Notes under the pieces: generated by a model | Seen by the model: only the letters and a program-made list of their open reading frames with translations | What the model was told of the DNA's origin: nothing | Databases searched by the model: none | In this document: piece after piece, positions 3,272 through 13,392 of the stretch | How the letters are laid out: each line of letters opens with the position of its first letter | Numbering within the stretch: position 1 is the stretch's first letter | Origin: an uncultured Kiloniellales bacterium | GTDB taxonomy: Bacteria; Pseudomonadota; Alphaproteobacteria; Kiloniellales; JAKSDN01 | Reading direction: 5' to 3' | Assembly (NCBI GenBank): GCA_947258885.1 | Contig: CAMYKD010000018.1 | Span: forward strand, 27,150-91,149 | Length of the DNA: 64,000 nucleotides | Made by a program: the position numbers and the translations under genes

Positions 3272-5749
3272 GTGACCGCGCTATCCGCATTACCGGAGAA
3301 ACACCTCCCTCTGCCCCACCGCTTCGCCGAATGGTTCGCGGCGAAGGGCTGGCAACCCCACGCGCATCAGCTCGATATGCTGGCGGCGGCGGACTCGGGC
3401 AGGTCCGCGTTGCTGATCGCGCCGACCGGCGGCGGCAAGACCTTGGCCGGTTTCCTGCCCGCCCTGATCGACTTGGCGGAAAGCCCGCGCGACGGACTGC
3501 ACACGCTCTACGTCTCGCCCTTGAAGGCACTCGCCGTCGACATCCACCGCAACCTGACGCGGCCGATCCAGGAGCTGGGCCTCGACATTGACTGCGAGAC
3601 GCGCACCGGCGATACGCCCCAGGCCAAGCGCCAGCGCCAGCGTCGCCGCCCTCCACAACTTCTGCTGACCACGCCGGAATCGCTCGCCCTCCTGCTCTCC
3701 TACCACGACGCGCCGCAGGTGTTCGCAGGCCTGAACTCGGTGGTGGTCGACGAGTTGCATGCGCTGGCCGACAACAAGCGCGGCGATCTGCTGGCGCTCG
3801 GTCTGGCCCGCCTGCAAGGCTTGGCGCCCGGCTGCCGCCGGGTCGGCCTCTCGGCCACGGTGCACGACCCGCAGGCGCTGGTCGCCTGGCTCTCGCCGAC
3901 GGGGCGCCATGAGGACGCACCGCTCCGCCTGATCCAGGCCGGCGGGGGCGCCGCGCCCGAGGTCGAGATCCTGGGGACTCGCGCCCATCTGCCCTGGTCC
4001 GGACACATGGCGGTCCATGCCCTCGCCGAGGTCTTCGAGCGCATCCGCGCGGCACGCACCACGCTCGTCTTCGTCAACACCCGCGCCCAGGCTGAGATCG
4101 TGTTCCGCGAGCTGTGGCGGCTCAACGAGGAGGGCCTCGCGATCGCGCTGCACCACGGCAGCCTCTCGGCCGAACAGCGGCGCAAGGTCGAGGCGGCCAT
4201 GGCGCGCGGCGAGCTGCGCGCGGTGGTCGCGACCTCCTCGCTCGATCTCGGGGTCGACTGGGCGGCGGTCGATCTGGTGGTGCAGGTCGGCGCGCCCAAG
4301 GGCGTCTCGCGCCTGCTTCAACGCATCGGCCGGGCCAACCACCGCCTCGACCGGCCGAGCCGGGCGCTGCTCGTTCCGGCCAACCGCTTCGAGGTGCTGG
4401 AATGCCGTGCCGCGCTGGACGGCCTGCGCGCCGGCACCCTGGACGGCGACCCGGCCAAACCCGGCGGCCTCGACGTGCTGGCCCAGCACATCCTCGGCAC
4501 CGCCTGCTCCGGGCCCTTCGATGCCGAGACCCTCTACGCCGAGGTGACGCGCGCCGCGCCCTACGCCGCGCTCCCGCGCCCGGACTTCGACGACGTGCTG
4601 GCCTTCGTCGCCGACGGCGGCTACGCGCTCGGCGGTTACGAACGCTACCGGCGGCTCGGGCGAGACCGCGAAGGACGCTACCGGGTCGCCTCGCCGGCCC
4701 ATCTGCGCCGCTACCGCATGAACGTCGGCACGATCGTCGAAGCGCCGACGGTCCGGGTGAAGCTGAAGCGCGGCCGCATGCTGGGCGAGGTCGAAGAGCA
4801 CTTCGTCCGGGGCTTGGTCCCCGGCGACAGCTTCGTCTTCGCCGGCGAGCTCCTGACCTTCGAAGGCCTGCGCGAGACCTGGGCCGAGGTCATCCGCGGC
4901 CCTGCCGGCGGCGAACCCAAGGTGCCGGCCTACGCGGGAGGCCGCTTGCCGCTCTCGACCCACCTGGCCGAGCGCGTGCGCGCCATGCTCGAAGCCCCGG
5001 GACGTTGGCGTGACCTGCCGGCGAACGTCGCCGATTGGCTGTTCATGCAACGCCGGCGCTCGATCCTACCGCCGGTTGAAGGCCTGCTGGTCGAAACCTT
5101 CCCGCGCGGCCAAAAGCAGTTCCTGGTCGCCTACTGCTTCGAGGGGCGCAACGCGCACCAAACCCTCGGCATGCTGCTGACCCGGCGCATGGAGCGCGCG
5201 GGCCTGGGGCCGCTGGGCTTCGTCGCCACCGACTACGTGCTCGCGGTGTGGAGCCTCGAGCCCGTGACCGACGCGGCCGCGCTGCTCGACCAGGACATGC
5301 TGGGCGACGACCTGGAAGAATGGATGGCGGACTCCTCCATGCTGCGCCGGACCTTCCGCCAGGTCGCGGTGATCGCCGGCTTGATCGAGCGGCGCTATCC
5401 CGGCCGGGAAAAGAGCGGCCGTCAGGTCACCGTCAGCGCCGATTTGATCTACGACGTGCTGCGCAAGTACGAGCCGGACCACGTGCTGCTGCGCGCGACC
5501 CGGGCCGACGCCGCGGGCGGCCTGACCGACATCGGCCGCCTGGCCGGGCTGCTGGCCCGCGTCCAGGGTCGCATAACGCATCGCGCTCTGCCCCGGGTCT
5601 CGCCGCTCGCCGTGCCGGTCCTGCTCGAGATCGGCAAGGAACAGGTCACTGGCGCCGCGCTCGACGAATTGCTCGACGAAAGCGCGCGGGCGCTGATCGA
5701 GGAGGCCACGGGTAGGCTGCAGGTGATACAGGCGGAGCTGCCGCTGTGA
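3272..5749 (+). CDS. Lhr-like DEXH-box helicase (ligase-associated DNA damage response type)
   Basis: 825-aa ORF with GTG start. Helicase motifs present: APTGGGKT (Walker A), VVVDELHAL (DEXH), LSATV, QRIGRANH (motif VI), followed by a long Lhr-type C-terminal region. The stop overlaps the pdeM start (GTGA). Confidence 0.9.
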   Translation: MTALSALPEKHLPLPHRFAEWFAAKGWQPHAHQLDMLAAADSGRSALLIAPTGGGKTLAGFLPALIDLAESPRDGLHTLYVSPLKALAVDIHRNLTRPIQELGLDIDCETRTGDTPQAKRQRQRRRPPQLLLTTPESLALLLSYHDAPQVFAGLNSVVVDELHALADNKRGDLLALGLARLQGLAPGCRRVGLSATVHDPQALVAWLSPTGRHEDAPLRLIQAGGGAAPEVEILGTRAHLPWSGHMAVHALAEVFERIRAARTTLVFVNTRAQAEIVFRELWRLNEEGLAIALHHGSLSAEQRRKVEAAMARGELRAVVATSSLDLGVDWAAVDLVVQVGAPKGVSRLLQRIGRANHRLDRPSRALLVPANRFEVLECRAALDGLRAGTLDGDPAKPGGLDVLAQHILGTACSGPFDAETLYAEVTRAAPYAALPRPDFDDVLAFVADGGYALGGYERYRRLGRDREGRYRVASPAHLRRYRMNVGTIVEAPTVRVKLKRGRMLGEVEEHFVRGLVPGDSFVFAGELLTFEGLRETWAEVIRGPAGGEPKVPAYAGGRLPLSTHLAERVRAMLEAPGRWRDLPANVADWLFMQRRRSILPPVEGLLVETFPRGQKQFLVAYCFEGRNAHQTLGMLLTRRMERAGLGPLGFVATDYVLAVWSLEPVTDAAALLDQDMLGDDLEEWMADSSMLRRTFRQVAVIAGLIERRYPGREKSGRQVTVSADLIYDVLRKYEPDHVLLRATRADAAGGLTDIGRLAGLLARVQGRITHRALPRVSPLAVPVLLEIGKEQVTGAALDELLDESARALIEEATGRLQVIQAELPL

Positions 5750-6429
5750 GACGCGGTTCCGAGGTCCTGGTCAACGGCGTGGAGCTGCTGGCCGACGTTT
5801 CAGGAGCGCTCTACTGGCCGGCGCTGCGCACGCTGGTGGTCGCGGATCTGCATCTGGAGAAGGGCTCGGCATTCGCGGCACGAGGACAGCTGCTGCCGCC
5901 CTACGACAGCGCCGCGACGCTGCAGGCCCTGGCCGAGGTTATCGTCCGTCGCGATCCCGAGCGGGTCATCTGCCTGGGCGACAGCTTCCACGACGACGGC
6001 GCGGCCGGGCGCTTGGCGTCCGCCGACGGCGCGGCGTTGCGCCGCCTGACCGCCGCCCACGACTGGATCTGGATCGCGGGCAATCACGACCCTGTCCCCC
6101 CGGTCGCTTGGGGCGGGAAGGTCGAAACCCGGGTCACGCTGGGCGCGCTCGCATTCCGGCATCGGGCCGGCGGCGACCGCGCACCCGGGGAGATTTCGGG
6201 CCACTACCACCCCACGGCCTCGGTGCGCACGCGCGCCAGGCGGATCACTGGGCGCTGTTTCGTGGGCGACGGCAGGCGCCTGATTCTGCCCGCCTTCGGC
6301 GCCTACACCGGCGGCCTCGACGTGCTCGACCCGGCCATCGCCGGGCTTTTTCCGCGCGGCTTTTCGGTCCACCTGCTCGGCCGCGGCGCGGTCCACAGCT
6401 TCTCCGGGACGGCATTGGCGGCCGGATAG
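5746..6429 (+). CDS. pdeM: ligase-associated DNA damage response endonuclease PdeM (metallophosphoesterase)
   Basis: 227 aa. Calcineurin-like phosphoesterase motifs: VVADLHLEKG, CLGDSFHD, GNHDP, GHYHP. Translationally coupled to the upstream Lhr-like helicase. Confidence 0.85.
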   Translation: MRRGSEVLVNGVELLADVSGALYWPALRTLVVADLHLEKGSAFAARGQLLPPYDSAATLQALAEVIVRRDPERVICLGDSFHDDGAAGRLASADGAALRRLTAAHDWIWIAGNHDPVPPVAWGGKVETRVTLGALAFRHRAGGDRAPGEISGHYHPTASVRTRARRITGRCFVGDGRRLILPAFGAYTGGLDVLDPAIAGLFPRGFSVHLLGRGAVHSFSGTALAAG

Positions 6430-6683
6430 GTCCTGCGGGCCGGCGGCGACCCGTGGATCAGGAAGCCGATCGTCGGCGCGGGATTGCGGGTCGGTGCCAC
6501 CCATCACCGCTCATACCGGGGGCTCATGGGAAGTCAACAGATCGACCGGATCTGTGGCTGGGCCTGCGAGCACGCACCCTGAAACGAGATCTTTCGTTAT
6601 AGTTGCTTTCTTTTCAAGGATATTCTCCCTTCTCAACGTTCTGGGCCAGCCCCGTCAGGCAGTGCGGGCAATGATCTTTTTCG

Positions 6684-6708
6684 GGAAGAAATCGCCGGAC
6701 CGGGTGTT
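6684..6708 (+). promoter_or_regulatory. ECF-type promoter candidate upstream of G/S-rich gene 1
   Basis: GGAAG-AAATCGCCGGACCGGG-TGTT (GGAAG, N16, TGTT), ending 43 nt before ATG 6752. The same architecture recurs at 9664-9688(-), 9778-9802(+) and 11392-11416(+). The 16-nt block CGGGAAGAAATCGCCG is identical to the one at 11390-11405. Confidence 0.6.
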
Positions 6709-6751
6709 TTCTGAACAACGGCCATTGCAACTACAGAGTAGGTAAAATCTT

Positions 6752-7048
6752 ATGAAAAACAAAACCATAGCCGATGAAGCCGTCGAGACGAACGTCGACC
6801 TGGACCGGCGGCGAGCCCTTGCCCGTCTCGGGCTCGGTCTTTCGGCCGCCTACGCGGTCCCGGCCCTACTGACCTTGAGCCGCGGCGCCCACGCCTCGAG
6901 CGGCGATGGCGGCTCTGGCGGCTCGGGTGGCTCCGGCGGCGATAGCGGCTCCGGCGGCAGCGCCTCTGGCGCCAGCGTCAGCGGTCCGAGCAGCGACGAT
7001 CCGGCGGTCGTGTCGGACGGTAGCAGCGGCCCGTCCGTCGATCCCTAG
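6752..7048 (+). CDS. small Gly/Ser/Asp-rich protein 1 with conserved twin-Arg leader (candidate secreted protein or modified-peptide precursor)
   Basis: 98 aa: MKNKTIADEAVETNVDLDRRRALARLGLGLSAAYAVPALLTLSRGAHA|SSGDGGSGGSGGSGGDSGSGGSASGASVSGPSSDDPAVVSDGSSGPSVDP. It has a Tat-like RR n-region, an h-region and an AxA site. The core has no Lys, Arg or aromatic residues. Paralogous to the ORFs at 9890 and 11473. Confidence 0.75.
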   Translation: MKNKTIADEAVETNVDLDRRRALARLGLGLSAAYAVPALLTLSRGAHASSGDGGSGGSGGSGGDSGSGGSASGASVSGPSSDDPAVVSDGSSGPSVDP

Positions 7049-7065
7049 CCCTAGACAACTTTCAT

Positions 7066-7092
7066 CCGCCGGGCCCTTTACGGGCCCGGCGG
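7066..7092 (+). terminator. strong GC hairpin between G/S-rich gene 1 and the kinase-RRE gene (terminator/attenuator candidate)
   Basis: CCGCCGGGCCC-TTTAC-GGGCCCGGCGG forms an 11-bp perfect stem 18 nt after stop 7048. It is followed by GCTCTTTGT, which is only a weak U-tract. Confidence 0.5.
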
Positions 7093-7155
7093 GCTCTTTG
7101 TAGGATCCCCGACAGAGCGTGAGTCGAACAACGGCGTCGAGCCGGACGAGGCGCT

Positions 7156-8382
7156 GTGCCTGATAGATTGCTTCTCGAATTCGAAGGTCTGAGCCACCGG
7201 ATCGCCCTGCTGGACTGCCGCGAGGTCTATGCCTGCTTTCCGGGGGTGTTCCGCGGCTGGAAGATCCATGAAGCCGGAACCGCCGACCAACCCCCGATCC
7301 TGACCCTCGCGGGCTCTGGCGAAGGCTATACCCTGGAAACCCCCTGGCTCGACCAGCCGCTGGTGCGCCGCGACAAGATCGACGCGCTCTGCGGCTTCAT
7401 CGCCGAGTTCATCCGGGCCTATGTCAACGACGACCAGCGGCTGCTCTGCCTGCACGGCGCGGCAGCCGAGTTCGCCGGCAAACTCGTGGTCTTTCCGAAC
7501 CGCTACCGGGCCGGCAAGAGCGTGCTCTCCGCCTGCCTGGCGGCGGCCGGGGTGCGCCTCTTCGCCGACGACGTGCTGCCGATCGGCGGGCCGGACGACC
7601 TCGGCATGGCGCCGGGCATCGTGCCGCGTCTGCGGCTGCCGCTGCCGGACAACCTGACTCCGGCAACAAGGGACTTCCTGGAGGCCCGCCGGGGACCGAG
7701 CGGCAAGCGTTATCTCTACCTGGACTTGGCCGCGGCGGAACTCGCCAGCTACGGCACGCTGGCGCCCATCGGCGGTTTCGTGCTGCTCGAGCGGGAAGCG
7801 GGGGCGGATCTCGATCTCGCGCCGGTCGACCCGGGCGAGATGCTGCGCCAAGTGATCTGGCAGAACTTCGCCCGCGAGACCCCGGCGCCCGAGATCCTGC
7901 GGCGCCTGGAGCGCATCGTCGGTCGCGCCCGCTGCCTTCGCCTGCGCTACGACCGGGCGGACGAGGCCGTGGCCCTGCTCAAGGAAACATTCGCGAGCTG
8001 GCCCGCGGCCGCGGAGGATCCCGAAGGAGCGGTTCAGGATGCACATGGCCCGGGGCCGTCCGCGCCGACAGGGAACGTCCCGACCGGTTGCTATCTGCGC
8101 AATCCGGACATTACCGAAACGAAGGTGGGGGTGGAACACTTCCTGGCCGACTCGAAGGGCGCGGCGATCCACAACCTCAACGCCGTCGGCTCTGCGCTCT
8201 GGCAGCTCATGGCCGAGCCCAGGACCATCGATGAGCTGGTCGACCCGCTGCACGCCGCCTTTCCCGAGGTCGCTCGCACGCAGATCGAGCAGGACGTGCG
8301 CGCACTGCTCAAGGGTCTCATCGCCAAGCGGCTCGTGATGGCGGGATCCGAGGACATCCGGGGGCGCCAGAGCGCCTCGTGA
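7156..8382 (+). CDS. HprK-like serine kinase domain fused to C-terminal PqqD-family (RiPP recognition element-like) domain
   Basis: 408 aa, GTG start. The N-terminal ~300 aa carry HPr kinase C-domain-like motifs: LCLHGAAAEFAGKLVVF, the P-loop-like RYRAGKSVLSACL, and VRLFADDVLPI. The C-terminal ~90 aa are PqqD-like: AAIHNLNAVGSALWQLMAEPRTIDELVDPLHAAFPEVARTQIEQDVRALLKGLIAKRLV. Confidence 0.75.
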   Translation: MPDRLLLEFEGLSHRIALLDCREVYACFPGVFRGWKIHEAGTADQPPILTLAGSGEGYTLETPWLDQPLVRRDKIDALCGFIAEFIRAYVNDDQRLLCLHGAAAEFAGKLVVFPNRYRAGKSVLSACLAAAGVRLFADDVLPIGGPDDLGMAPGIVPRLRLPLPDNLTPATRDFLEARRGPSGKRYLYLDLAAAELASYGTLAPIGGFVLLEREAGADLDLAPVDPGEMLRQVIWQNFARETPAPEILRRLERIVGRARCLRLRYDRADEAVALLKETFASWPAAAEDPEGAVQDAHGPGPSAPTGNVPTGCYLRNPDITETKVGVEHFLADSKGAAIHNLNAVGSALWQLMAEPRTIDELVDPLHAAFPEVARTQIEQDVRALLKGLIAKRLVMAGSEDIRGRQSAS

Positions 8383-8403
8383 AAGGTGCCCCTGGAAAGC
8401 CGG

Positions 8404-9048
8404 CTAGCTGTCGCTGATCAGAACCAACCGCGTCTTCCACTGGCCCTCGGGCGCGCGGCAGGCGATGGCGCGGCGAATCTCCGATTTGCCGTCCAGCGCC
8501 TCCAACGCGGTGTATTCCCGGCACCACTGGCCGCCTCTGTTCTTGAAGGTGCGCACCGGCGTAATCTCGCCGGTCTTGCCGCTGTCCGGATTGCGCCAGG
8601 CAGCGGCCTCGCCGCTCACATTTTTCTCCAAGGCCTGGGTTAACGCCGCTTCCCTGACCCGCTGATCCGCCTGCCCGACGGCGTGGAGCCGGGCGATCTC
8701 CTGCTCGACCCGGTAGTCGACCAACAGGAACCCGCCGCCCAGCCCGACGATCAGCATGGCAAGCGACGCGGCAAGCGCAACGGGCCAAGGACTGCGCCAG
8801 GGACCGCTGCGGCTCGCCCGCTCGGCGGACGTTGCCTGGATCGCCTGGAGGACGCGGGCCGGAACCGGCGCGTTCAACGGTTCGTTGAAGGCCGAGCGCA
8901 ACAGCTCGGCGCTCTCGCGCAGCCGGCGGACGGTTTCGCGGGCTTCGGAATCCCCGGCAAGCGCCGCTTCCACGCGCGCAGTCTCGCTCTGGTCGAGTTG
9001 TCCGTCTACGTAGGCGACCAAGAATTCCGGATCGATAAATTGGGTCAT
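8404..9048 (-). CDS. anti-sigma factor, single TM, periplasmic surface-antigen-like Cys-pair domain
   Basis: Start at MTQFIDPEFLVAYVDGQLDQSETARVEAALAGDSEARETV, an anti-sigma N-terminal helix-type sequence. ATG 9048 lies 4 nt after the sigma stop. TM segment: WPVALAASLAMLIVGLGGGFLLV. C-terminal domain: W.NPDSGKTGEITPVRTFKNRGGQWCREY...ACRAPEGQW. Confidence 0.8.
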   Translation of the reverse strand: MTQFIDPEFLVAYVDGQLDQSETARVEAALAGDSEARETVRRLRESAELLRSAFNEPLNAPVPARVLQAIQATSAERASRSGPWRSPWPVALAASLAMLIVGLGGGFLLVDYRVEQEIARLHAVGQADQRVREAALTQALEKNVSGEAAAWRNPDSGKTGEITPVRTFKNRGGQWCREYTALEALDGKSEIRRAIACRAPEGQWKTRLVLISDS

Positions 9049-9052
9049 GACG

Positions 9053-9586
9053 TCACCTCGCCGGTTCCGGGGTCGGGGTCGGCTGTTCGCCGCCAACGAA
9101 GGCTTTCAGGGCCAGCCGCGCCCGGGCGAGGCGGCTGGTCACGGTGCCGATGGGCAGCTCCAGCATTTCCGAGACCTCCCGGTAGGACAGGCCCTCCACG
9201 GTAACAAGCAGCAGGATGGTCTTCTGCTCCTCGGGCAAGCGATCGACGAAACCGCGCACCGCCTCGAAGGTCATCTGCGCCTCGGCGGCCCGCACTCCGT
9301 CCACCGTGCCGTGCTCGACCGGGTCGATGCTGGCCAGGTGCTGGCCGCGCACGCCCTTGGCGCGCAGGTCGTTCAGATGGAGGTTGCGTGCGATGCGATA
9401 CATCCAACTGTCCAGCCGGGTCCCCGGTTGCCATTGATCGATGTGGCGGATCGCCCTTTCGCAGGTCGCCTGCAAAAGGTCGTCGCCGTCGTGCACAGAG
9501 CCGGTCAGGCCGTAGGCGAAGCGGCGCAGTCGGGGCAGAAACGCGAGCATTTCACGGCGAATCGTCTCGTCCAACTCTGATCGCAC
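9053..9586 (-). CDS. ECF (extracytoplasmic function) RNA polymerase sigma-70 family factor
   Basis: 177 aa. Region 2: DLLQATCERAIRHIDQWQPGTRLDSWMYRIARNLHLNDLRA. Region 4: LPEEQKTILLLVTVEGLSYREVSEMLELPIGTVTSRLARARLAL. GTG start at 9586; an alternative ATG lies at 9550. Confidence 0.9.
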   Translation of the reverse strand: MRSELDETIRREMLAFLPRLRRFAYGLTGSVHDGDDLLQATCERAIRHIDQWQPGTRLDSWMYRIARNLHLNDLRAKGVRGQHLASIDPVEHGTVDGVRAAEAQMTFEAVRGFVDRLPEEQKTILLLVTVEGLSYREVSEMLELPIGTVTSRLARARLALKAFVGGEQPTPTPEPAR

Positions 9587-9663
9587 CCTTTGCCTGAGAC
9601 CACCCTGGAGACCCTGGTGGACCTGAAGTGTCCCGGATCCTCGAGGACCGACCTCAATTCAAC

Positions 9664-9688
9664 AACACGCGAAATCGGGGTTTATTCC
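9664..9688 (-). promoter_or_regulatory. ECF-type promoter candidate upstream of the sigma gene (autoregulation)
   Basis: On the minus strand it reads GGAAT-AAACCCCGATTTCGCG-TGTT (N16). It lies 77 nt upstream of the sigma start at 9586. Confidence 0.55.
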
Positions 9689-9777
9689 CCCTGCACGACG
9701 CTATTACACTACTCAGTACCAGAGAAACCGACCTACGTTATGGTTAACGACCGTGTACGAAAAGACCCTTGGTCGGC

Positions 9778-9802
9778 GGAAGATTTCTTGCCCTGAGGTG
9801 TT
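9778..9802 (+). promoter_or_regulatory. ECF-type promoter candidate upstream of G/S-rich gene 2
   Basis: GGAAG-ATTTCTTGCCCTGAGG-TGTT (N16), 87 nt upstream of ATG 9890. It is divergent from the sigma-gene promoter candidate. Confidence 0.55.
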
Positions 9803-9889
9803 ATTTGGGCAAGACAGGTAGAGGTGGCGCTCCCTCGCGCCAGTCGCGGGGATCGCGGCAAAGAGTTACACACGGGCAGGAAGCAGTCG

Positions 9890-10432
9890 ATGTCGATCAA
9901 CCAGTTCCGGCGCAATCTTCGCCTACTCGCCTCGACCAGCGTCTTGGCCTGCGCGATTATTGGGGCGCCGGTCTCCGTACGGGTCCAGCTGGACGGCCCG
10001 GGTTGGCATTTCGAAGCGCCTCTGATCGGTTCCGGAGTTTTTCGTCATACCTCCGGCGAGAGCTTGGAGCCCGGCACCGCGGAGCTCGGTACCGACAGGA
10101 GCGCTGACGAAGCGCGGCGCAAGGCCCTGGCGCGCCTCGGCCTGGGTGAAGGCACACCCTATGAGCCTCCCGTATTGCTCACCCTGAGCCAGGCCCAGGC
10201 AGCGTCCGGCAGTGGCAGCGGTGGTGACAGCGGCGGTGATAGCGGTTCCTCAGGGGGCGACGACTCCGGTGGCAACAGCGGCCCCGGAGGGGCATCCGGC
10301 CCAAGCAGCGGCACATCGGGGACTTCCGGTACGGCCGGCGCGAGTGGCGGCAGCTTTGGCGACGTGGAGCAGGCAGGCCCCAGTCTCAGCCAGGATGAAG
10401 AGGCGACAGCGATCAGCACCGGTTGGCAGTGA
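9890..10432 (+). CDS. Gly/Ser-rich protein 2: own N-terminal signal, an internal copy of the conserved leader module, then a G/S-rich tail
   Basis: Preferred ATG 9890 (AGGAAG upstream). Signal: MSINQFRRNLRLLASTSVLACAIIGAPVS. After ~60 aa comes ...DEARRKALARLGLGEGTPYEPPVLLTLSQAQAASGSGSGGDSGGDSGSSGGDDSGGNSGPGG.... The track ORF starts at GTG 9824. Confidence 0.7.
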   Translation: MSINQFRRNLRLLASTSVLACAIIGAPVSVRVQLDGPGWHFEAPLIGSGVFRHTSGESLEPGTAELGTDRSADEARRKALARLGLGEGTPYEPPVLLTLSQAQAASGSGSGGDSGGDSGSSGGDDSGGNSGPGGASGPSSGTSGTSGTAGASGGSFGDVEQAGPSLSQDEEATAISTGWQ

Positions 10433-10812
10433 GTAGCCGCGTCCCGAATCCTTACTATGGACTGCCGTGGCTGGCAGCTTTCATGCTCGCGTCATGCACG
10501 GCGCAGGGTCCGGGATCATCCCAGGAGGCGGCGCGGGACACGTTCTACGATGGCTTGAGCACCGAGGAAATCGCGGTCGCGCAGCAGGCCGTCCAAGAGG
10601 CGCTCGAAAGCCGGCTGAGCAACGAGACGTCCCAGTGGACGTACCCAAACGGCAGCTCAGGCTCGGTCACGCCGCTCCGCACCTTCCGCACCAAGACGGG
10701 TCACTATTGCCGGGACTATGCCGAATCCCTCGCCAAGGGGTCTCAGCCGGGCTCCACCGTCAGGACGGCATGCCGCGGCAGCCAGGGTATATGGCGGGTG
10801 GTCAAGCGCTAA
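10423..10812 (+). CDS. lipoprotein with surface-antigen-like Cys-pair domain (paralog of the anti-sigma periplasmic domain)
   Basis: TTG 10423 (or GTG 10429) overlaps the end of the upstream gene. Lipobox: AAFMLASC. Domain: SQWTYPNGSSGSVTPLRTFRTKTGHYCRDY...ACRGSQGIW. It aligns position for position with the anti-sigma C-terminus. Confidence 0.7.
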   Translation: MAVSSRVPNPYYGLPWLAAFMLASCTAQGPGSSQEAARDTFYDGLSTEEIAVAQQAVQEALESRLSNETSQWTYPNGSSGSVTPLRTFRTKTGHYCRDYAESLAKGSQPGSTVRTACRGSQGIWRVVKR

Positions 10813-11080
10813 CGTCGGCCCCAGAGCGCTGGACCGCGCTCGACTTCGCGGTGCTCGCACGCATCGACAGCGTCAGCAACGCCGGAGGACAGCAAAACCA
10901 GCACGCCCGGCGAGCCGGCTAAGTCCGCCGGCGGTTTCGGCTGTCTCGAACAGATGGGCCCCGACCTGAGCACCGGCGACGAGGCCGAGGCCATCCAGCG
11001 TGGAGGGCAATAACAGCCACGCCTCGGATCGCCCTGCAGGGCCTGATCGGCAACCAAACCCCGCACTCGACAGACCGCGC

Positions 11081-11319
11081 CTAGCCCGCATTTCTCACAC
11101 TGTCCACGGTCTGCGTCGCGTTCAGGCGGTGCGCTCGGCTAGGAGAAGGGCGAAAAGCGCAGCCGTAGCTACGGTTGAGGCTTTCGACGCGGCCGACACC
11201 CGGCTGGGCGCGACCCAGCCGTGCGGCGCGATGCTGAAGCATCGGGCAAGCGGCTTGACGCACCCTGTTGGCGGGACAGCGTCGCGCAGACCATGGACAG
11301 TGTGAGAAATGCGGGCTAG
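11081..11319. repeat. ~239-bp element bounded by 35-bp inverted repeats (MITE-like element or long-stem structured RNA)
   Basis: The left arm at 11081-11115 is CTAGCCCGCATTTCTCACACTGTCCACGGTCTGCG. The right arm at 11285-11319 is its reverse complement with one mismatch. The interior holds several short palindromes (CCGTAGCTACGG, GGCTGGG..CCCAGCC, GATGCT..AGCATC). No credible ORF. Confidence 0.7.
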
Positions 11320-11391
11320 CGGCGGACTTACGGGTCTCGTCTACCGGTGGCCTTCCCGATCTCCCCGCACGAACTTTTCTTTCGCCGCGCG

Positions 11392-11416
11392 GGAAGAAAT
11401 CGCCGTTCGGCGTGTT
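11392..11416 (+). promoter_or_regulatory. ECF-type promoter candidate upstream of G/S-rich gene 3
   Basis: GGAAG-AAATCGCCGTTCGGCG-TGTT (N16), 56 nt upstream of ATG 11473. Confidence 0.6.
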
Positions 11417-11472
11417 TGGTTAATGGAAGGTTAACGCACTCCCTTTGTCCTACGCTCGAGAGGAGTTATGTC

Positions 11473-11877
11473 ATGAGCAACAAAACCGAAGAGAAAGCGA
11501 CCGACGGGCTCACGGCCGAAATGAATCGCCGCAGGGCACTTGCCCGCATTGGCTTGGGCGTTTCCGTTGCCTATGCAGCACCGGTCCTGATGAACCTAAG
11601 CCAAGCGGCGGCGTCGTCCGGCAGCGGTTCGAGCGGACCGAGCGGCCACGGCGGGCCGGACGGCGACGAAGGGTCGAGCGGCCACAGCGGGCCGAGCGGC
11701 CACGGCGAGTCGAGCGGCGACGAAGGGTCGAGCGGCGACGAAGGGTCGAGCGGCCACAGCGGGCCGAGCGACTATAGCGAAGGGCCCAGCTCTCCCTCGG
11801 GACCGAGCGACTATAGCGAAGGGCCCACCTCTCCCTCGGGACCGAGCGACTATAGCGAAGGGCCCACCTATCGCTAA
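11473..11877 (+). CDS. small Gly/Ser/His/Asp-rich protein 3 with conserved twin-Arg leader and tandem SDYSEGP repeats
   Basis: 134 aa from ATG 11473 (GAGGAG upstream). Sequence: MSNKTEEKATDGLTAEMNRRRALARIGLGVSVAYAAPVLMNLSQAAA|SSGSGSSGPSGHGG...(SGPSDYSEGPxSP)x3...TYR. The N-terminus and leader are collinear with gene 1. Confidence 0.75.
   Translation: MSNKTEEKATDGLTAEMNRRRALARIGLGVSVAYAAPVLMNLSQAAASSGSGSSGPSGHGGPDGDEGSSGHSGPSGHGESSGDEGSSGDEGSSGHSGPSDYSEGPSSPSGPSDYSEGPTSPSGPSDYSEGPTYR
11761..11870 (+). repeat. 39-bp in-frame tandem repeat (~2.8 copies) inside G/S-rich gene 3
   Basis: GG(G/A)CCGAGCGACTATAGCGAAGGGCCCA(G/C)CTCTCCCTCG occurs at 11761, 11800 and, truncated, at 11839. GGCGACGAAGGGTCGAGC is also repeated three times between ~11663 and 11751. 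Confidence 0.9.
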
Positions 11878-11991
11878 GAATCGAGGGGTCCTTCGGGCTC
11901 GATCGGTCTCACGCCGACCTAATCTCGGGGATCCTCGAGAACGCGGCAGAGAAAGCAGCGTTCGGAATGTGATGCGCGGCGAGGCCGGCCC

Positions 11992-13392
11992 CTACCCGGC
12001 CTCGCCGAGGCATTCGTCGAGGATGCCGAGCGCCCGGTCCATTTCGTCTTCGGTGACGACGAGCGGCGGGCTCAGGGTCAGCACGCTGCCCATGGTGGTT
12101 TTGAAGCTGAGCCCGCGGTCGAGCGCCCGATACAGGACCTCCTCGGTGGCCTCCGTCGCGGGCTCCTTGCTCTCCCTGTCGGCCACCAGCTCCAGTCCGA
12201 GCAGCAGCCCGCGCCCGCGCACGTCGCCGACCAAGCGATGCCGGTCCTTCAGGTCGTGCAACCGTTCGAGCGCGCGGGCCCCGACCTCGGCGGCATGCTC
12301 GACCAGCCCCTCCTGCTCGATGATCTCGATCGTGGTGAGCGCCGCCCGGGCGGTCACCGGGTTCTTTTCGTGGGTGTAGTGGCCGACCGCCCAGGCACCG
12401 GCCGCGTCCAGCCCGGGCTGGCAAAGCACGGCCGCAATGGGCAGCATGCCGCCGCCCAGCGCCTTGCCGAGAACCAGGATGTCCGGCACCACCGCCTCGT
12501 GCTCGCAGGCGAACATGCGCCCGGTCCGGCCCAGCCCGGTCGGGATCTCGTCGAAGATCAAGAGCGCCCCATGGTCGTCGCAGGCCTGGCGCACCGCCTG
12601 CCAGAAGCCCGGCGGCGGCAGGTAAGGCACGGCACGGGCCGGCTCGGCGACCACCGCCGCCACGTCGCCCTCCTTCTCCAGCACGTAGCGTACGAAATTG
12701 GCGCAGGTCATGTGGCAGAGATCGAGCTGTGGCCGACCGTCGCGATCCGGATAGCCATAGGGGCAGCGGTAGCAGGTGAAGGGGGCGACATGCTCGCCGC
12801 CCGGCAGCAGCGGCCCGACCGGCCCGGAGCGGAATAGCTGCTCGCCGCCAACGCTGGCGCCGCCGAAGCCCGCGCCGTGGAAAGAATCCCAGAACGACAC
12901 GGTCTTGTGCCGGCCCGTGGCCGCGCGGGCGACCTTGAGCGCCACGTCGATCGCGTCGGATCCGCCGGTCGTGAACAGCGCCTTGGAGAGCGCGCCCGGC
13001 GAGATCCCGGCCAGCTTGCGCGCCAGCGCCACGGCCGGCTCGCAGGTAAAGCGCCGCGGCGCGAAGGGCAACTCGTCGAGCTGCGCCTTGATCGCCGCCT
13101 TGAGCCGCGGATGGCCGTAGCCGATGTGATGGACGTTGTTGCCGTGGAAGTCCATGTAGCGCCGGCCGGCCAGGTCCTCGATCCAAATGCCCTCGGCGCG
13201 GCGCACGACCGAAAGGCAGGGCGTCGAGATCGACTGGTGCAGAAAGTAGCGGGCGTCCTGCTCGACCAGCGCCCGGGTCGCCGCATCGTGGGTCGCCGCC
13301 GTCCAGCGCCGCCGGCGTTCGGAGGTGTTGCTCTCGCCTTCCGAGAGATGCGGCACGGCTCCCGGCTTGACCTTGCCCTCATTTGTGCTCAT
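11992..13392 (-). CDS. class-III (fold-type I) PLP aminotransferase-family enzyme; candidate PbfA-type (R)-1-hydroxy-2-aminoethylphosphonate ammonia-lyase
   Basis: Start at MSTNEGKV (ATG 13392). Motifs: FTTGGSDAIDVALKVAR, LLIFDEIPTGLGRTG, VLGKALGGG (PLP Lys). Located directly downstream of phnW and phnX on the same strand. The PbfA assignment comes from context only. Confidence 0.8.
   Translation of the reverse strand: MSTNEGKVKPGAVPHLSEGESNTSERRRRWTAATHDAATRALVEQDARYFLHQSISTPCLSVVRRAEGIWIEDLAGRRYMDFHGNNVHHIGYGHPRLKAAIKAQLDELPFAPRRFTCEPAVALARKLAGISPGALSKALFTTGGSDAIDVALKVARAATGRHKTVSFWDSFHGAGFGGASVGGEQLFRSGPVGPLLPGGEHVAPFTCYRCPYGYPDRDGRPQLDLCHMTCANFVRYVLEKEGDVAAVVAEPARAVPYLPPPGFWQAVRQACDDHGALLIFDEIPTGLGRTGRMFACEHEAVVPDILVLGKALGGGMLPIAAVLCQPGLDAAGAWAVGHYTHEKNPVTARAALTTIEIIEQEGLVEHAAEVGARALERLHDLKDRHRLVGDVRGRGLLLGLELVADRESKEPATEATEEVLYRALDRGLSFKTTMGSVLTLSPPLVVTEDEMDRALGILDECLGEAG

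Follow-up and report, generated by a model that had tools for sequence, protein, structure and literature searches.

What is made by a bacterial locus in which genes for Ser- and Gly-rich peptides, a kinase-like enzyme and a sigma factor lie side by side? We address this question for an island of genes in an uncultured Kiloniellales bacterium (assembly GCA_947258885.1, contig CAMYKD010000018.1, positions 27,150 to 91,149 of the forward strand). The whole 64-kb stretch is referred to as the window; the island occupies positions 6684-11877 of it (Table 1), and comparison loci carry L numbers. Judged from sequence and predicted structure, the island probably encodes a ribosomal-peptide modification cassette that is built around a leader-guided serine kinase and controlled by an extracytoplasmic function (ECF) sigma factor.

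The central gene of the island encodes a fused enzyme. Its N-terminal beta domain and HprK/PEPCK-fold P-loop kinase-like domain (residues ~1-285, nucleotides 7156-8010) are followed by a disordered linker of ~20 residues (286-305) and a PqqD-type RRE (recognition element of RiPPs, peptides made by the ribosome and altered after translation) of the lasso-B1 type (residues ~306-396, nucleotides 8071-8343). The PqqD profile (Pfam accession PF05402) matches residues 327-394 over its full length (profile positions 1-67) with 51.9 bits, against a cutoff of 23.4. An AlphaFold2 model (pLDDT 85.8, pTM 0.82) resolves two domains. Foldseek aligns the C-terminal part with TbiB1 (PDB 5v1v and 5v1u; TM 0.84-0.87, root-mean-square deviation 1.8-2.2 Å), and this part has the three-stranded sheet and three helices of the winged-helix RRE fold. 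By profile comparison, its nearest solved relatives are TbiB1 (E 1.2e-8), LppB (E 5.5e-8), PbaB1 and TfuB1 (E-values up to 1.6e-3).

The N-terminal part resembles ATP-dependent phosphoenolpyruvate carboxykinase (PEPCK; Foldseek E 2.7e-6) and HprK/P (3tqf, 1ko7 and 1kkm; E 1.4e-4 to 2.5e-4). HprK/P was found by the fold search only, as a sequence-profile search of the PDB with the N-terminal domain returned no HprK match. The P-loop comprises G120-K121-S122. A His-Lys-Asp-Asp tetrad (H100, K121, D138 and D139) is conserved in 254, 256, 254 and 256 of 257 family members, respectively. Its spacing matches that of Lactobacillus casei HprK/P, in which H140, K161 and D178/D179 lie 21 (His-Lys) and 17-18 (Lys-Asp-Asp) residues apart. 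The same motif is reported to be essential in lasso-tailoring kinases (PMC9266682). An earlier note on this DNA, made from the sequence alone, had proposed a Ser-kinase-like domain fused to PqqD; the PqqD score, the fold matches and the tetrad agree with this proposal, and the family profile that it named for the kinase (TIGR04352) gives a significant match that stays far under its cutoff, as described below. The enzyme shares the PEPCK/HprK-type P-loop kinase fold with HprK/P and the TIGR04352/TIGR04355 families but differs in its predicted substrate (a leader peptide rather than HPr), in its RRE fusion and in its N-terminal domain. PADLOC defence models gave no match for the enzyme, anti-sigma factor, lipoprotein or ORF2, and a defence-system reading was dropped.

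HprK/P acts both as a kinase and as a phosphorylase, which raises the question of whether the peptide is modified by chemistry other than simple O-phosphorylation of core serines. Candidates are nucleotidylylation, pyrophosphate-dependent phosphorylation or phosphorolysis as in HprK/P, and the use of phosphate as a leaving group in a later reaction. The closest fold matches are PEPCKs and not HprK, and sequence similarity to characterized peptide kinases is remote, as such chemistry might predict. All characterized peptide-tailoring members (PadeK, ThcoK, SyanK and LppK), however, are ATP-dependent Ser kinases (PMC8498205, PMC13381572), and in the two-gene cassettes that we examined (see below) neither a lyase nor a transferase nor any further partner enzyme is encoded. 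We consider a different chemistry unlikely and favor a serine kinase.

The predicted substrates are the products of three genes that share a leader. One leader hidden Markov model (HMM) matches all three open reading frames (ORFs; E 3e-13 to 4e-19). In precursor 1, the leader contains R19-R20, Y34-x-x-P37-x-L39, T41-L42-S43 and A46-H-A48, and the Ser/Gly/Asp-rich core is 34% Ser and 32% Gly. Precursor 3 has a core of Ser/Gly/Pro/Glu/His repeats (SGPSGHG..., SGPSDYSEGP; 31% Ser) and is preceded by a good Shine-Dalgarno sequence (GAGAGGAG). Matches of ORF3 to collagen-like adhesins, far under cutoff, were dismissed as low-complexity artefacts. Precursor 2 combines its own N-terminal signal-like segment with an internal leader motif, a Gly/Ser/Asp core and a conserved C-terminal motif. 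The claim of three small leader-bearing ORFs thus holds for the shared leader and fails for the size of ORF2. Codon differences in the leader are mostly synonymous (19 synonymous and 5 non-synonymous relative to L018; 6 and 0 relative to L001), which points to constraint at the protein level.

The 42 distinct leaders have the consensus RRxALxRLGL-(5)-YxxPxLxTLSxAxA, about 45 residues in length. With the Tyr numbered 0, the invariant residues are A-12, G-7, Y0, P+3 and S+9; 41 leaders carry RR and 36 carry T+7. Position +5 is Leu in 33 and Leu, Val, Ile or Ala in all 42. YxxPx[L/V] is the recognition motif of the discrete RREs of lasso peptides and of the linear polyphosphorylated peptides of Bacillota, known as LPPs (PMC13381572). 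The RRE gene of the island is accompanied by a gene for a partner peptide with a [Y/W]xxPx[L/V/I...] motif, as that study defines the motif (PMC13381572). Four Kiloniellales type-2 paralogs, ORF2 among them, have Asp or Glu residues that break the hydrophobic stretch of the leader and nevertheless keep all invariant residues. This pattern indicates recognition by a protein, beyond mere membrane targeting.

The invariance of S+9 (Ser43 of precursor 1, six residues before AxA) brings up the idea that this leader Ser is itself the phospho-acceptor, with the enzyme serving as a secretion regulator that gates export or cleavage. S+9 lies nine residues from the Tyr that the RRE would bind, within reach of a tethered active site, and T+7 is nearly as well conserved. 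Ordinary signal peptides, however, often have a small residue near position -6, and a leader target would leave the Ser/Thr richness of every core unexplained. In LPPs, moreover, the Ser that is modified comes 18 residues after the Tyr and beyond the cleavage site (PMC13381572). A leader acceptor thus appears very improbable, and phosphorylation of the core remains our preferred reading.

The leader also has the anatomy of an export signal. Forty of 44 leaders have 17 uncharged residues in a row, moderately hydrophobic (mean hydropathy 1.3-2.1) and followed by AxA; together with the RR pair, these h- and c-regions match the layout of twin-arginine translocation (Tat) signals, as judged from sequence features. 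The leader thus seems to double as a signal peptide of the twin-arginine type, with its cleavage site at AxA.

Beyond the leader, the cores are highly diverse and include GGSGG tracts and SEASEM, PSEPSE, GGTS and SGPSDYSEGP repeats. Their Gly content ranges from 1 to 68%, and Ser/Thr richness is their sole constant: Ser makes up 10-38% of each core except that of L028, which has no Ser and 17% Thr. The first Ser or Thr lies at most four residues from the AxA site in 41 of 44 cores. Second leader-bearing genes were also observed 3′ of the enzyme gene in L021 (1284-2060) and L034 (7175-7774); these encode the leader, a Gly/Ser/Arg linker and a C-terminal PepSY-like domain, which scores 23.1 bits in L021 (cutoff 24) and yields nothing at threshold in L034.

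Full-length homologs of the fused enzyme are numerous. One search gave at least 293 matches; a second, at E <= 1e-30, yielded 508 cluster representatives (50% identity), almost all of them ~400 residues long. Where the source names these proteins, they are called only 'PqqD family protein' or 'hypothetical protein', and so far they come almost only from uncultured marine and sediment bacteria. Four longer members (P0081, P0165, P0194 and P0207) were considered as natural precursor-enzyme fusions and rejected. In 34 of 41 loci, which come from four bacterial classes, the leader HMM detects an ORF with this leader immediately upstream of the kinase-RRE gene and on the same strand; the co-occurrence that the earlier note had named as a check on its proposal is thus nearly universal across phyla. 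The remaining seven loci are mostly incomplete or masked in sequence. In Gammaproteobacteria, the cassettes sit among unrelated housekeeping genes. Since the two genes stay together amid unrelated neighbors, the conserved unit is a two-gene cassette. Most of the cassettes have no dedicated protease or transporter in the neighborhoods examined.

The leader profile matches 77 further short proteins that bear other cores, and their contexts fall into two groups. The first (L041 2280-6478, L042 and L045) encodes a subtilisin-type S8 peptidase, a precursor of 65-73 residues in which the shared leader precedes an Arg/Ser 'SFS' repeat core, and a 420-residue kinase-RRE fusion that is 35% identical to the window enzyme (E 2e-63). 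L041 and L042 also carry an orthologous ECF sigma factor (51% identical to that of the window) and an anti-sigma factor (33%), and L041 has three GGAATA-N15-GCGTT promoter-like sites. The second group is unfused. It is represented by Thalassobaculum sp. L043 (GCA_040222255.1, 4700-7309), the sole context found in a named genus, and L044 is listed with the same form. L043 encodes two precursors in which the shared leader is joined to short Cys-containing cores (MGPSCAKNPANC), a discrete 264-residue kinase (hhalign probability 95% to the kinase domain), a discrete 90-residue PqqD protein and an NTP_transf_5 protein. This gene set corresponds to the K/B1/N set of paeninodin-type and LPP clusters. 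The same leader is found next to a fused kinase-RRE and next to separate kinase and RRE genes, which strongly supports joint action of leader, kinase and RRE.

TorD, DmsD and NapD are chaperones and proofreaders of Tat substrates, and the fusion could be imagined as another such protein. The small ORFs would then be ordinary low-complexity envelope proteins exported by Tat or Sec, and the kinase-like domain would time release of their signal peptides by nucleotide hydrolysis or sensing, with no covalent modification. Several features would suit this role: the full Tat-signal anatomy of the leader (RR, uncharged stretch, AxA), the scarcity of dedicated proteases and transporters, the PepSY-like globular domain in some leader proteins, and an atypical Walker A sequence. 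Against this role stand the His-Lys-Asp-Asp tetrad, whose Asp-Asp pair is needed for phosphotransfer in relatives and which is kept in >98% of the 257 members, and the Ser/Thr richness that is universal in otherwise very different cores. In the unfused sister system, an NTP-transferase accompanies the kinase, as is the case in phospho-glycosylated lasso and LPP clusters, and the type-2 paralogs retain the motif where a signal role is impossible. We regard a chaperone without enzymatic modification as improbable and retain the peptide kinase.

Of the known systems, the LPPs of Bacillota (PMC13381572, 2026) and phosphorylated lasso peptides come closest. We take LPPs first. Their clusters encode a precursor (LppA), an HprK-like kinase (LppK), an RRE (LppB), a peptidase resembling signal peptidase I (SpI-like; LppS), an exporter (LppD) and an NTP-transferase (LppN). 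As in the island, LPPs are linear ribosomal peptides whose conserved leader includes YxxPx[V/L]L and whose C-terminal part varies (35-200 residues in LPPs), and their HprK-like kinase works with a lasso-type RRE, LppB being the second-best solved relative of the RRE described here. Leader removal at a signal-peptidase-type site with a modified Ser just after cleavage is a further likeness that we predict for the island. In contrast to LPPs, kinase and RRE form one polypeptide here, and an SpI-like peptidase, an MsbA-like exporter and an NTP-transferase are all missing from the core cassette. Neither these proteins nor a discrete RRE were found in the window or beside the Gammaproteobacterial cassettes; only the distant Thalassobaculum locus has a discrete RRE and an NTP-transferase. 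The leader also departs from the LPP motif YxxPxVLxHQxIxFETxxS: only YxxPx[VL][LM] is common to both, the remainder here reads T-L-S-x-A-x-A, and the leader is of the twin-arginine type (RRxALxRLGL... AxA) and has no HQxIxFETxxS. Finally, the cores here are long low-complexity Ser/Gly tracts, the hosts are Proteobacteria and Desulfobacterales, and control is by an ECF sigma factor.

Phosphorylated and polyphosphorylated lasso peptides provide a second comparison. Their kinases (PadeK, ThcoK and SyanK; PMC8498205, PMC9266682) are HprK homologs with the His-Lys-Asp-Asp motif and act on the linear precursor; their B1-type RREs recognize YxxPxL, and Proteobacterial examples exist. Their target, however, is a C-terminal Ser, whereas the precursors here have no conserved terminal Ser. 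A lasso pathway was rejected, as neither a B2 leader peptidase nor a C macrolactam synthetase was found in the window region or in the neighborhoods examined. Bufferins, which are signal-peptide-bearing periplasmic RiPPs under the ECF sigma factor SigF and its partner NrsF (PMC11626156), resemble the island in their unusually long precursors, in a general-export signal peptide that replaces a dedicated transporter, in an RRE-type partner domain, in ECF sigma/anti-sigma control and in a presumed periplasmic site of action. They differ in chemistry (thiooxazole formation on Cys by an MNIO enzyme) and in their Sec signal, which modification does not require. In the island, the signal-like leader itself contains the RRE motif, and its twin arginine suggests Tat.

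The statement that no system of such composition was known therefore has to be qualified: RRE-guided HprK-like kinases are known from lasso peptides and LPPs (PMC13381572), and bufferins offer a further precedent (PMC11626156). The new elements are the fused enzyme, the recognition motif embedded in a signal peptide and the low-complexity Ser-rich cores. Kinase fusions are not mentioned in two RRE surveys, and literature searches returned no paper on a kinase-RRE/leader cassette and nothing on HPr-rel-A and TIGR04352/3/5. The cassette looks as though it works like the phospho-lasso and LPP systems while falling outside their defining criteria, and may represent an undescribed Gram-negative relative of the Bacillota phosphopeptides.

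From the computed anatomy, homology, motif conservation and co-occurrence, we infer the following course of binding, phosphorylation and export. The C-terminal lasso-B1/LppB-type RRE would dock on the YxxPxL segment of the leader, and the tethered HprK/PEPCK-fold domain (His100, Lys121, Asp138 and Asp139) would phosphorylate one or more core serines with ATP, at the start of the core or along its Ser-rich length. The position of the LPP phospho-Ser maps to the first core residues here. The product may be a polyphosphate chain on one Ser, as made by LppK, ThcoK and SyanK, or a peptide phosphorylated at many sites; the latter, which had been suggested initially, is one option beside the single-Ser chain that known relatives build. 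Because the enzyme has no signal peptide, this step is predicted to be cytoplasmic. The modified peptide would then leave through a general, probably the Tat, pathway and be cleaved after AxA by signal peptidase I. Such a leader would explain why most cassettes have no protease or transporter of their own.

Several observations weigh against this scheme. The HprK_rel_A profile (TIGR04352; E 1.4e-10, best stretch residues 93-140) reaches 40.7 bits against a cutoff of 200, a score far too low for membership, and the enzyme counts as a relative of that family. Its Walker A sequence, P-N/S-x-Y-R-A-G-K-S, has no first Gly. When precursor 1 was fused to the enzyme in an AlphaFold2 model (with a multiple sequence alignment for the enzyme part only), leader pLDDT was 26-37 and no confident docking was seen. 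One locus, L003, is a true orphan, with an enzyme and no adjoining precursor, and all 35 genome loci (Alpha-, Beta- and Gammaproteobacteria and Desulfobacterales) are metagenome-assembled genomes, with no cultured host. The leader is able to precede a folded domain, as in L021 and L034, and this is as compatible with a sorting signal as with a RiPP leader. A heavily anionic peptide, moreover, would need to be exported.

If the scheme is correct, RRE-guided peptide phosphorylation would extend into Gram-negative bacteria, in a minimal form that consists of one fused enzyme and a precursor, to which neither a protease nor an exporter is dedicated. The leader would be a clear example of a general-export signal peptide that contains a RiPP recognition motif, and the question would arise in which order modification and export take place. 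The family concerned is large (~500 clusters at 50% identity).

Table 1. Features of the island. Positions refer to the window except where a comparison locus is named.
Feature	Position	Strand	Length	Remarks
ECF-type promoter-like motif P1	6684-6708	+		GGAAGA-N14-GTGTT; 44 nt 5′ of precursor 1; same position in L001, L002 and L018
Precursor 1 (ORF1)	6752-7048	+	98 aa	Leader aa 1-48, core aa 49-98; leader HMM E 7.5e-18
GC-rich hairpin	7065-7093	+		12-bp stem (11 GC pairs), then a short T-containing tail
Fused kinase-RRE enzyme	7156-8382	+	408 aa	PqqD, HprK-related and fold matches
Anti-sigma factor	8404-9048	-	214 aa	Anti-sigma domain, one transmembrane segment, periplasmic 17kDa_Anti_2 sensor domain
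ECF sigma factor	9053-9586	-	177 aa	TIGR02937, Sigma70_r2, r4_2
Promoter-like motif before sigma gene	9664-9688	-		GGAATA-N14-GTGTT; conserved in L001, L002 and L018
Promoter-like motif P2	9778-9802	+		Before precursor 2
Precursor 2 (ORF2, 'type 2')	9890-10432	+	180 aa	Leader motif internal
Sigma-adjacent EEA...GW(Q/D) precursors	Window 10350-10432; L001 8587-9294; L002 8587-9276; L018 8663-9283; L017 4419-4859; L033 1-495
Lipoprotein	10423-10812	+	129 aa	Lipobox L-A-S-C, 17kDa_Anti_2 domain; start overlaps precursor 2 stop
Decayed remnant of type-2 precursor C-terminus	10930-11013	+		GGFGCLEQMGPDLSTGDEAEAIQRGGQ*; no leader, no start codon, no ORF listed
Promoter-like motif P3	11392-11416	+		Before precursor 3
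Precursor 3 (ORF3)	11473-11877	+	134 aa	Leader HMM E 4e-19; canonical leader

How is the island controlled? The sigma factor scores 78.2 bits on TIGR02937 (cutoff 42.9) and also matches Sigma70_r2 and r4_2. The start of the anti-sigma gene was placed at an ATG 4 nt past the sigma stop. The N-terminal domain of its product matches NF052375 (E 1.7e-16, yet under the curated cutoff) and zf-HC2 (20.8 bits, slightly below the cutoff of 22.2), and its C-terminal 17kDa_Anti_2 domain scores 38.2 bits (cutoff 26.6). A sigma factor with regions 2 and 4 only, an adjoining membrane anti-sigma factor and a promoter-like motif upstream of the sigma gene together identify an ECF sigma/anti-sigma pair. The lipoprotein carries a 17kDa_Anti_2 domain as well (29.7 bits, cutoff 26.6) and is 35% identical to the anti-sigma sensor domain over 75 residues (E 6e-15).

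Four matches to GGAAKA-N14-GTGTT occur in the window, where 0.01 are expected, and each precedes one transcription unit: ORF1, the sigma gene, ORF2 and ORF3. In L001 and L002, the motif recurs at all four of these positions; L018, which has no third precursor, has it at three of them. Its presence upstream of the sigma gene implies that the predicted ECF sigma factor is autoregulated. An envelope signal would thus switch on production through an autoregulated regulon of four promoters, the sigma/anti-sigma pair, three precursors and the lipoprotein. The enzyme gene is preceded by the hairpin instead, which is likely a partial terminator or attenuator between the precursor and enzyme genes. A hairpin of differing sequence keeps this position in ~24 of 29 related loci, several of them followed by T-runs, and would set a high precursor-to-enzyme ratio. 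As to neighbors, pdeM (TIGR04123, 221.6 bits, cutoff 150) and pbfA, a phosphonate lyase gene (NF049939, 661 bits), flank the island. The earlier note had described the sigma pair, the paralogous lipoprotein, the shared motif with the hairpin before the kinase, and flanks of pdeM and phosphonate catabolism, and our searches corroborate each of these at a level well above chance.

Gammaproteobacterial cassettes were observed to carry, in place of the ECF motif, a palindrome TGGGAA-N4-6-TTCCCA (for example, TGGGAATAAAATCCCA) located 25-45 nt 5′ of the precursor ATG (L005, L008, L010, L011, L012, L019, L024, L036 and L038). This element resembles an operator.

Genes for sigma, anti-sigma and extra 17kDa_Anti_2 proteins lie beside the cassette in the Kiloniellales-like loci L001, L002 and L018, in L017 and in the Desulfobacterales loci L026, L030 and L033. 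The sigma module is thus confined to some lineages and is not part of the core cassette. The initial interpretation, in which the RRE reads the leader, the kinase acts on the core and an ECF sigma factor is in control, is partly supported: the PqqD domain, fold, tetrad and co-occurrence agree with it, but it had passed over the YxxPxL motif and the signal-like character of the leader, and ECF control applies to a subset of lineages.

Sigma-adjacent precursors of Alphaproteobacteria and Desulfobacterales share the C-terminus (S/P)xxEEAxA(I/V)xxGW(Q/D)-COOH. It was found in those sigma-linked loci whose sequence covers that side (L001, L002, L018, L017 and L033). In ORF2, the motif reads FGDVEQ-GPSLS-DEEA-AI--GWQ, and the peptide ends in ...DEEATAISTGWQ. 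The 17kDa_Anti_2 sensor, or a protease that reads C-termini, may recognize this C-terminus as a ligand.

The recurrent link to one type of ECF sigma/anti-sigma pair suggests an envelope-stress function for phosphorylated low-complexity peptides; we know of no such function described to date. A more far-reaching version, which we hold to be doubtful, assigns the leader two purposes: it would be a Tat signal peptide whose hydrophobic core also docks the RRE. The fused kinase would keep the precursor back in the cytoplasm and load its Ser tract densely with phosphate, and a polyanionic phosphoserine polymer would be released to the envelope under ECF stress control, with the type-2 EEA..GW motif feeding back on the anti-sigma sensor or its lipoprotein paralog. 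Such a polymer would be a bacterial counterpart of phosvitin and phosphophoryn.

L002 and L018 share the pdeM ... pbfA flanks, and the whole sigma/peptide island is therefore syntenic within Kiloniellales. On the pdeM side, an ORF for an Lhr-type helicase (3272-6429, 825 aa) overlaps the pdeM start by 4 nt, which is the usual ligase-associated DNA-damage-response arrangement. An Rfam scan of 6300-12000 returned only a sub-threshold PhotoRC-I match; no known riboswitch or small RNA accounts for the intergenic regions.

Two further observations concern the region between the lipoprotein gene and precursor 3. By eye, 17 of 27 residues of the remnant at 10930-11013 match the ORF2 C-terminus, and it looks like a decayed duplication beside the lipoprotein gene. 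The gap between the two genes is ~660 nt here and only ~200 nt in L001 and L002. It contains a pair of 51-nt inverted repeats (11065-11115 and 11285-11335; 86% complementary, 169 nt apart) that forms a long hairpin (-174 kcal/mol, z -10.9) with no Rfam match. The 23-nt core of the arms occurs at those two sites only within the window, and the repeat may be a small inserted palindromic element.

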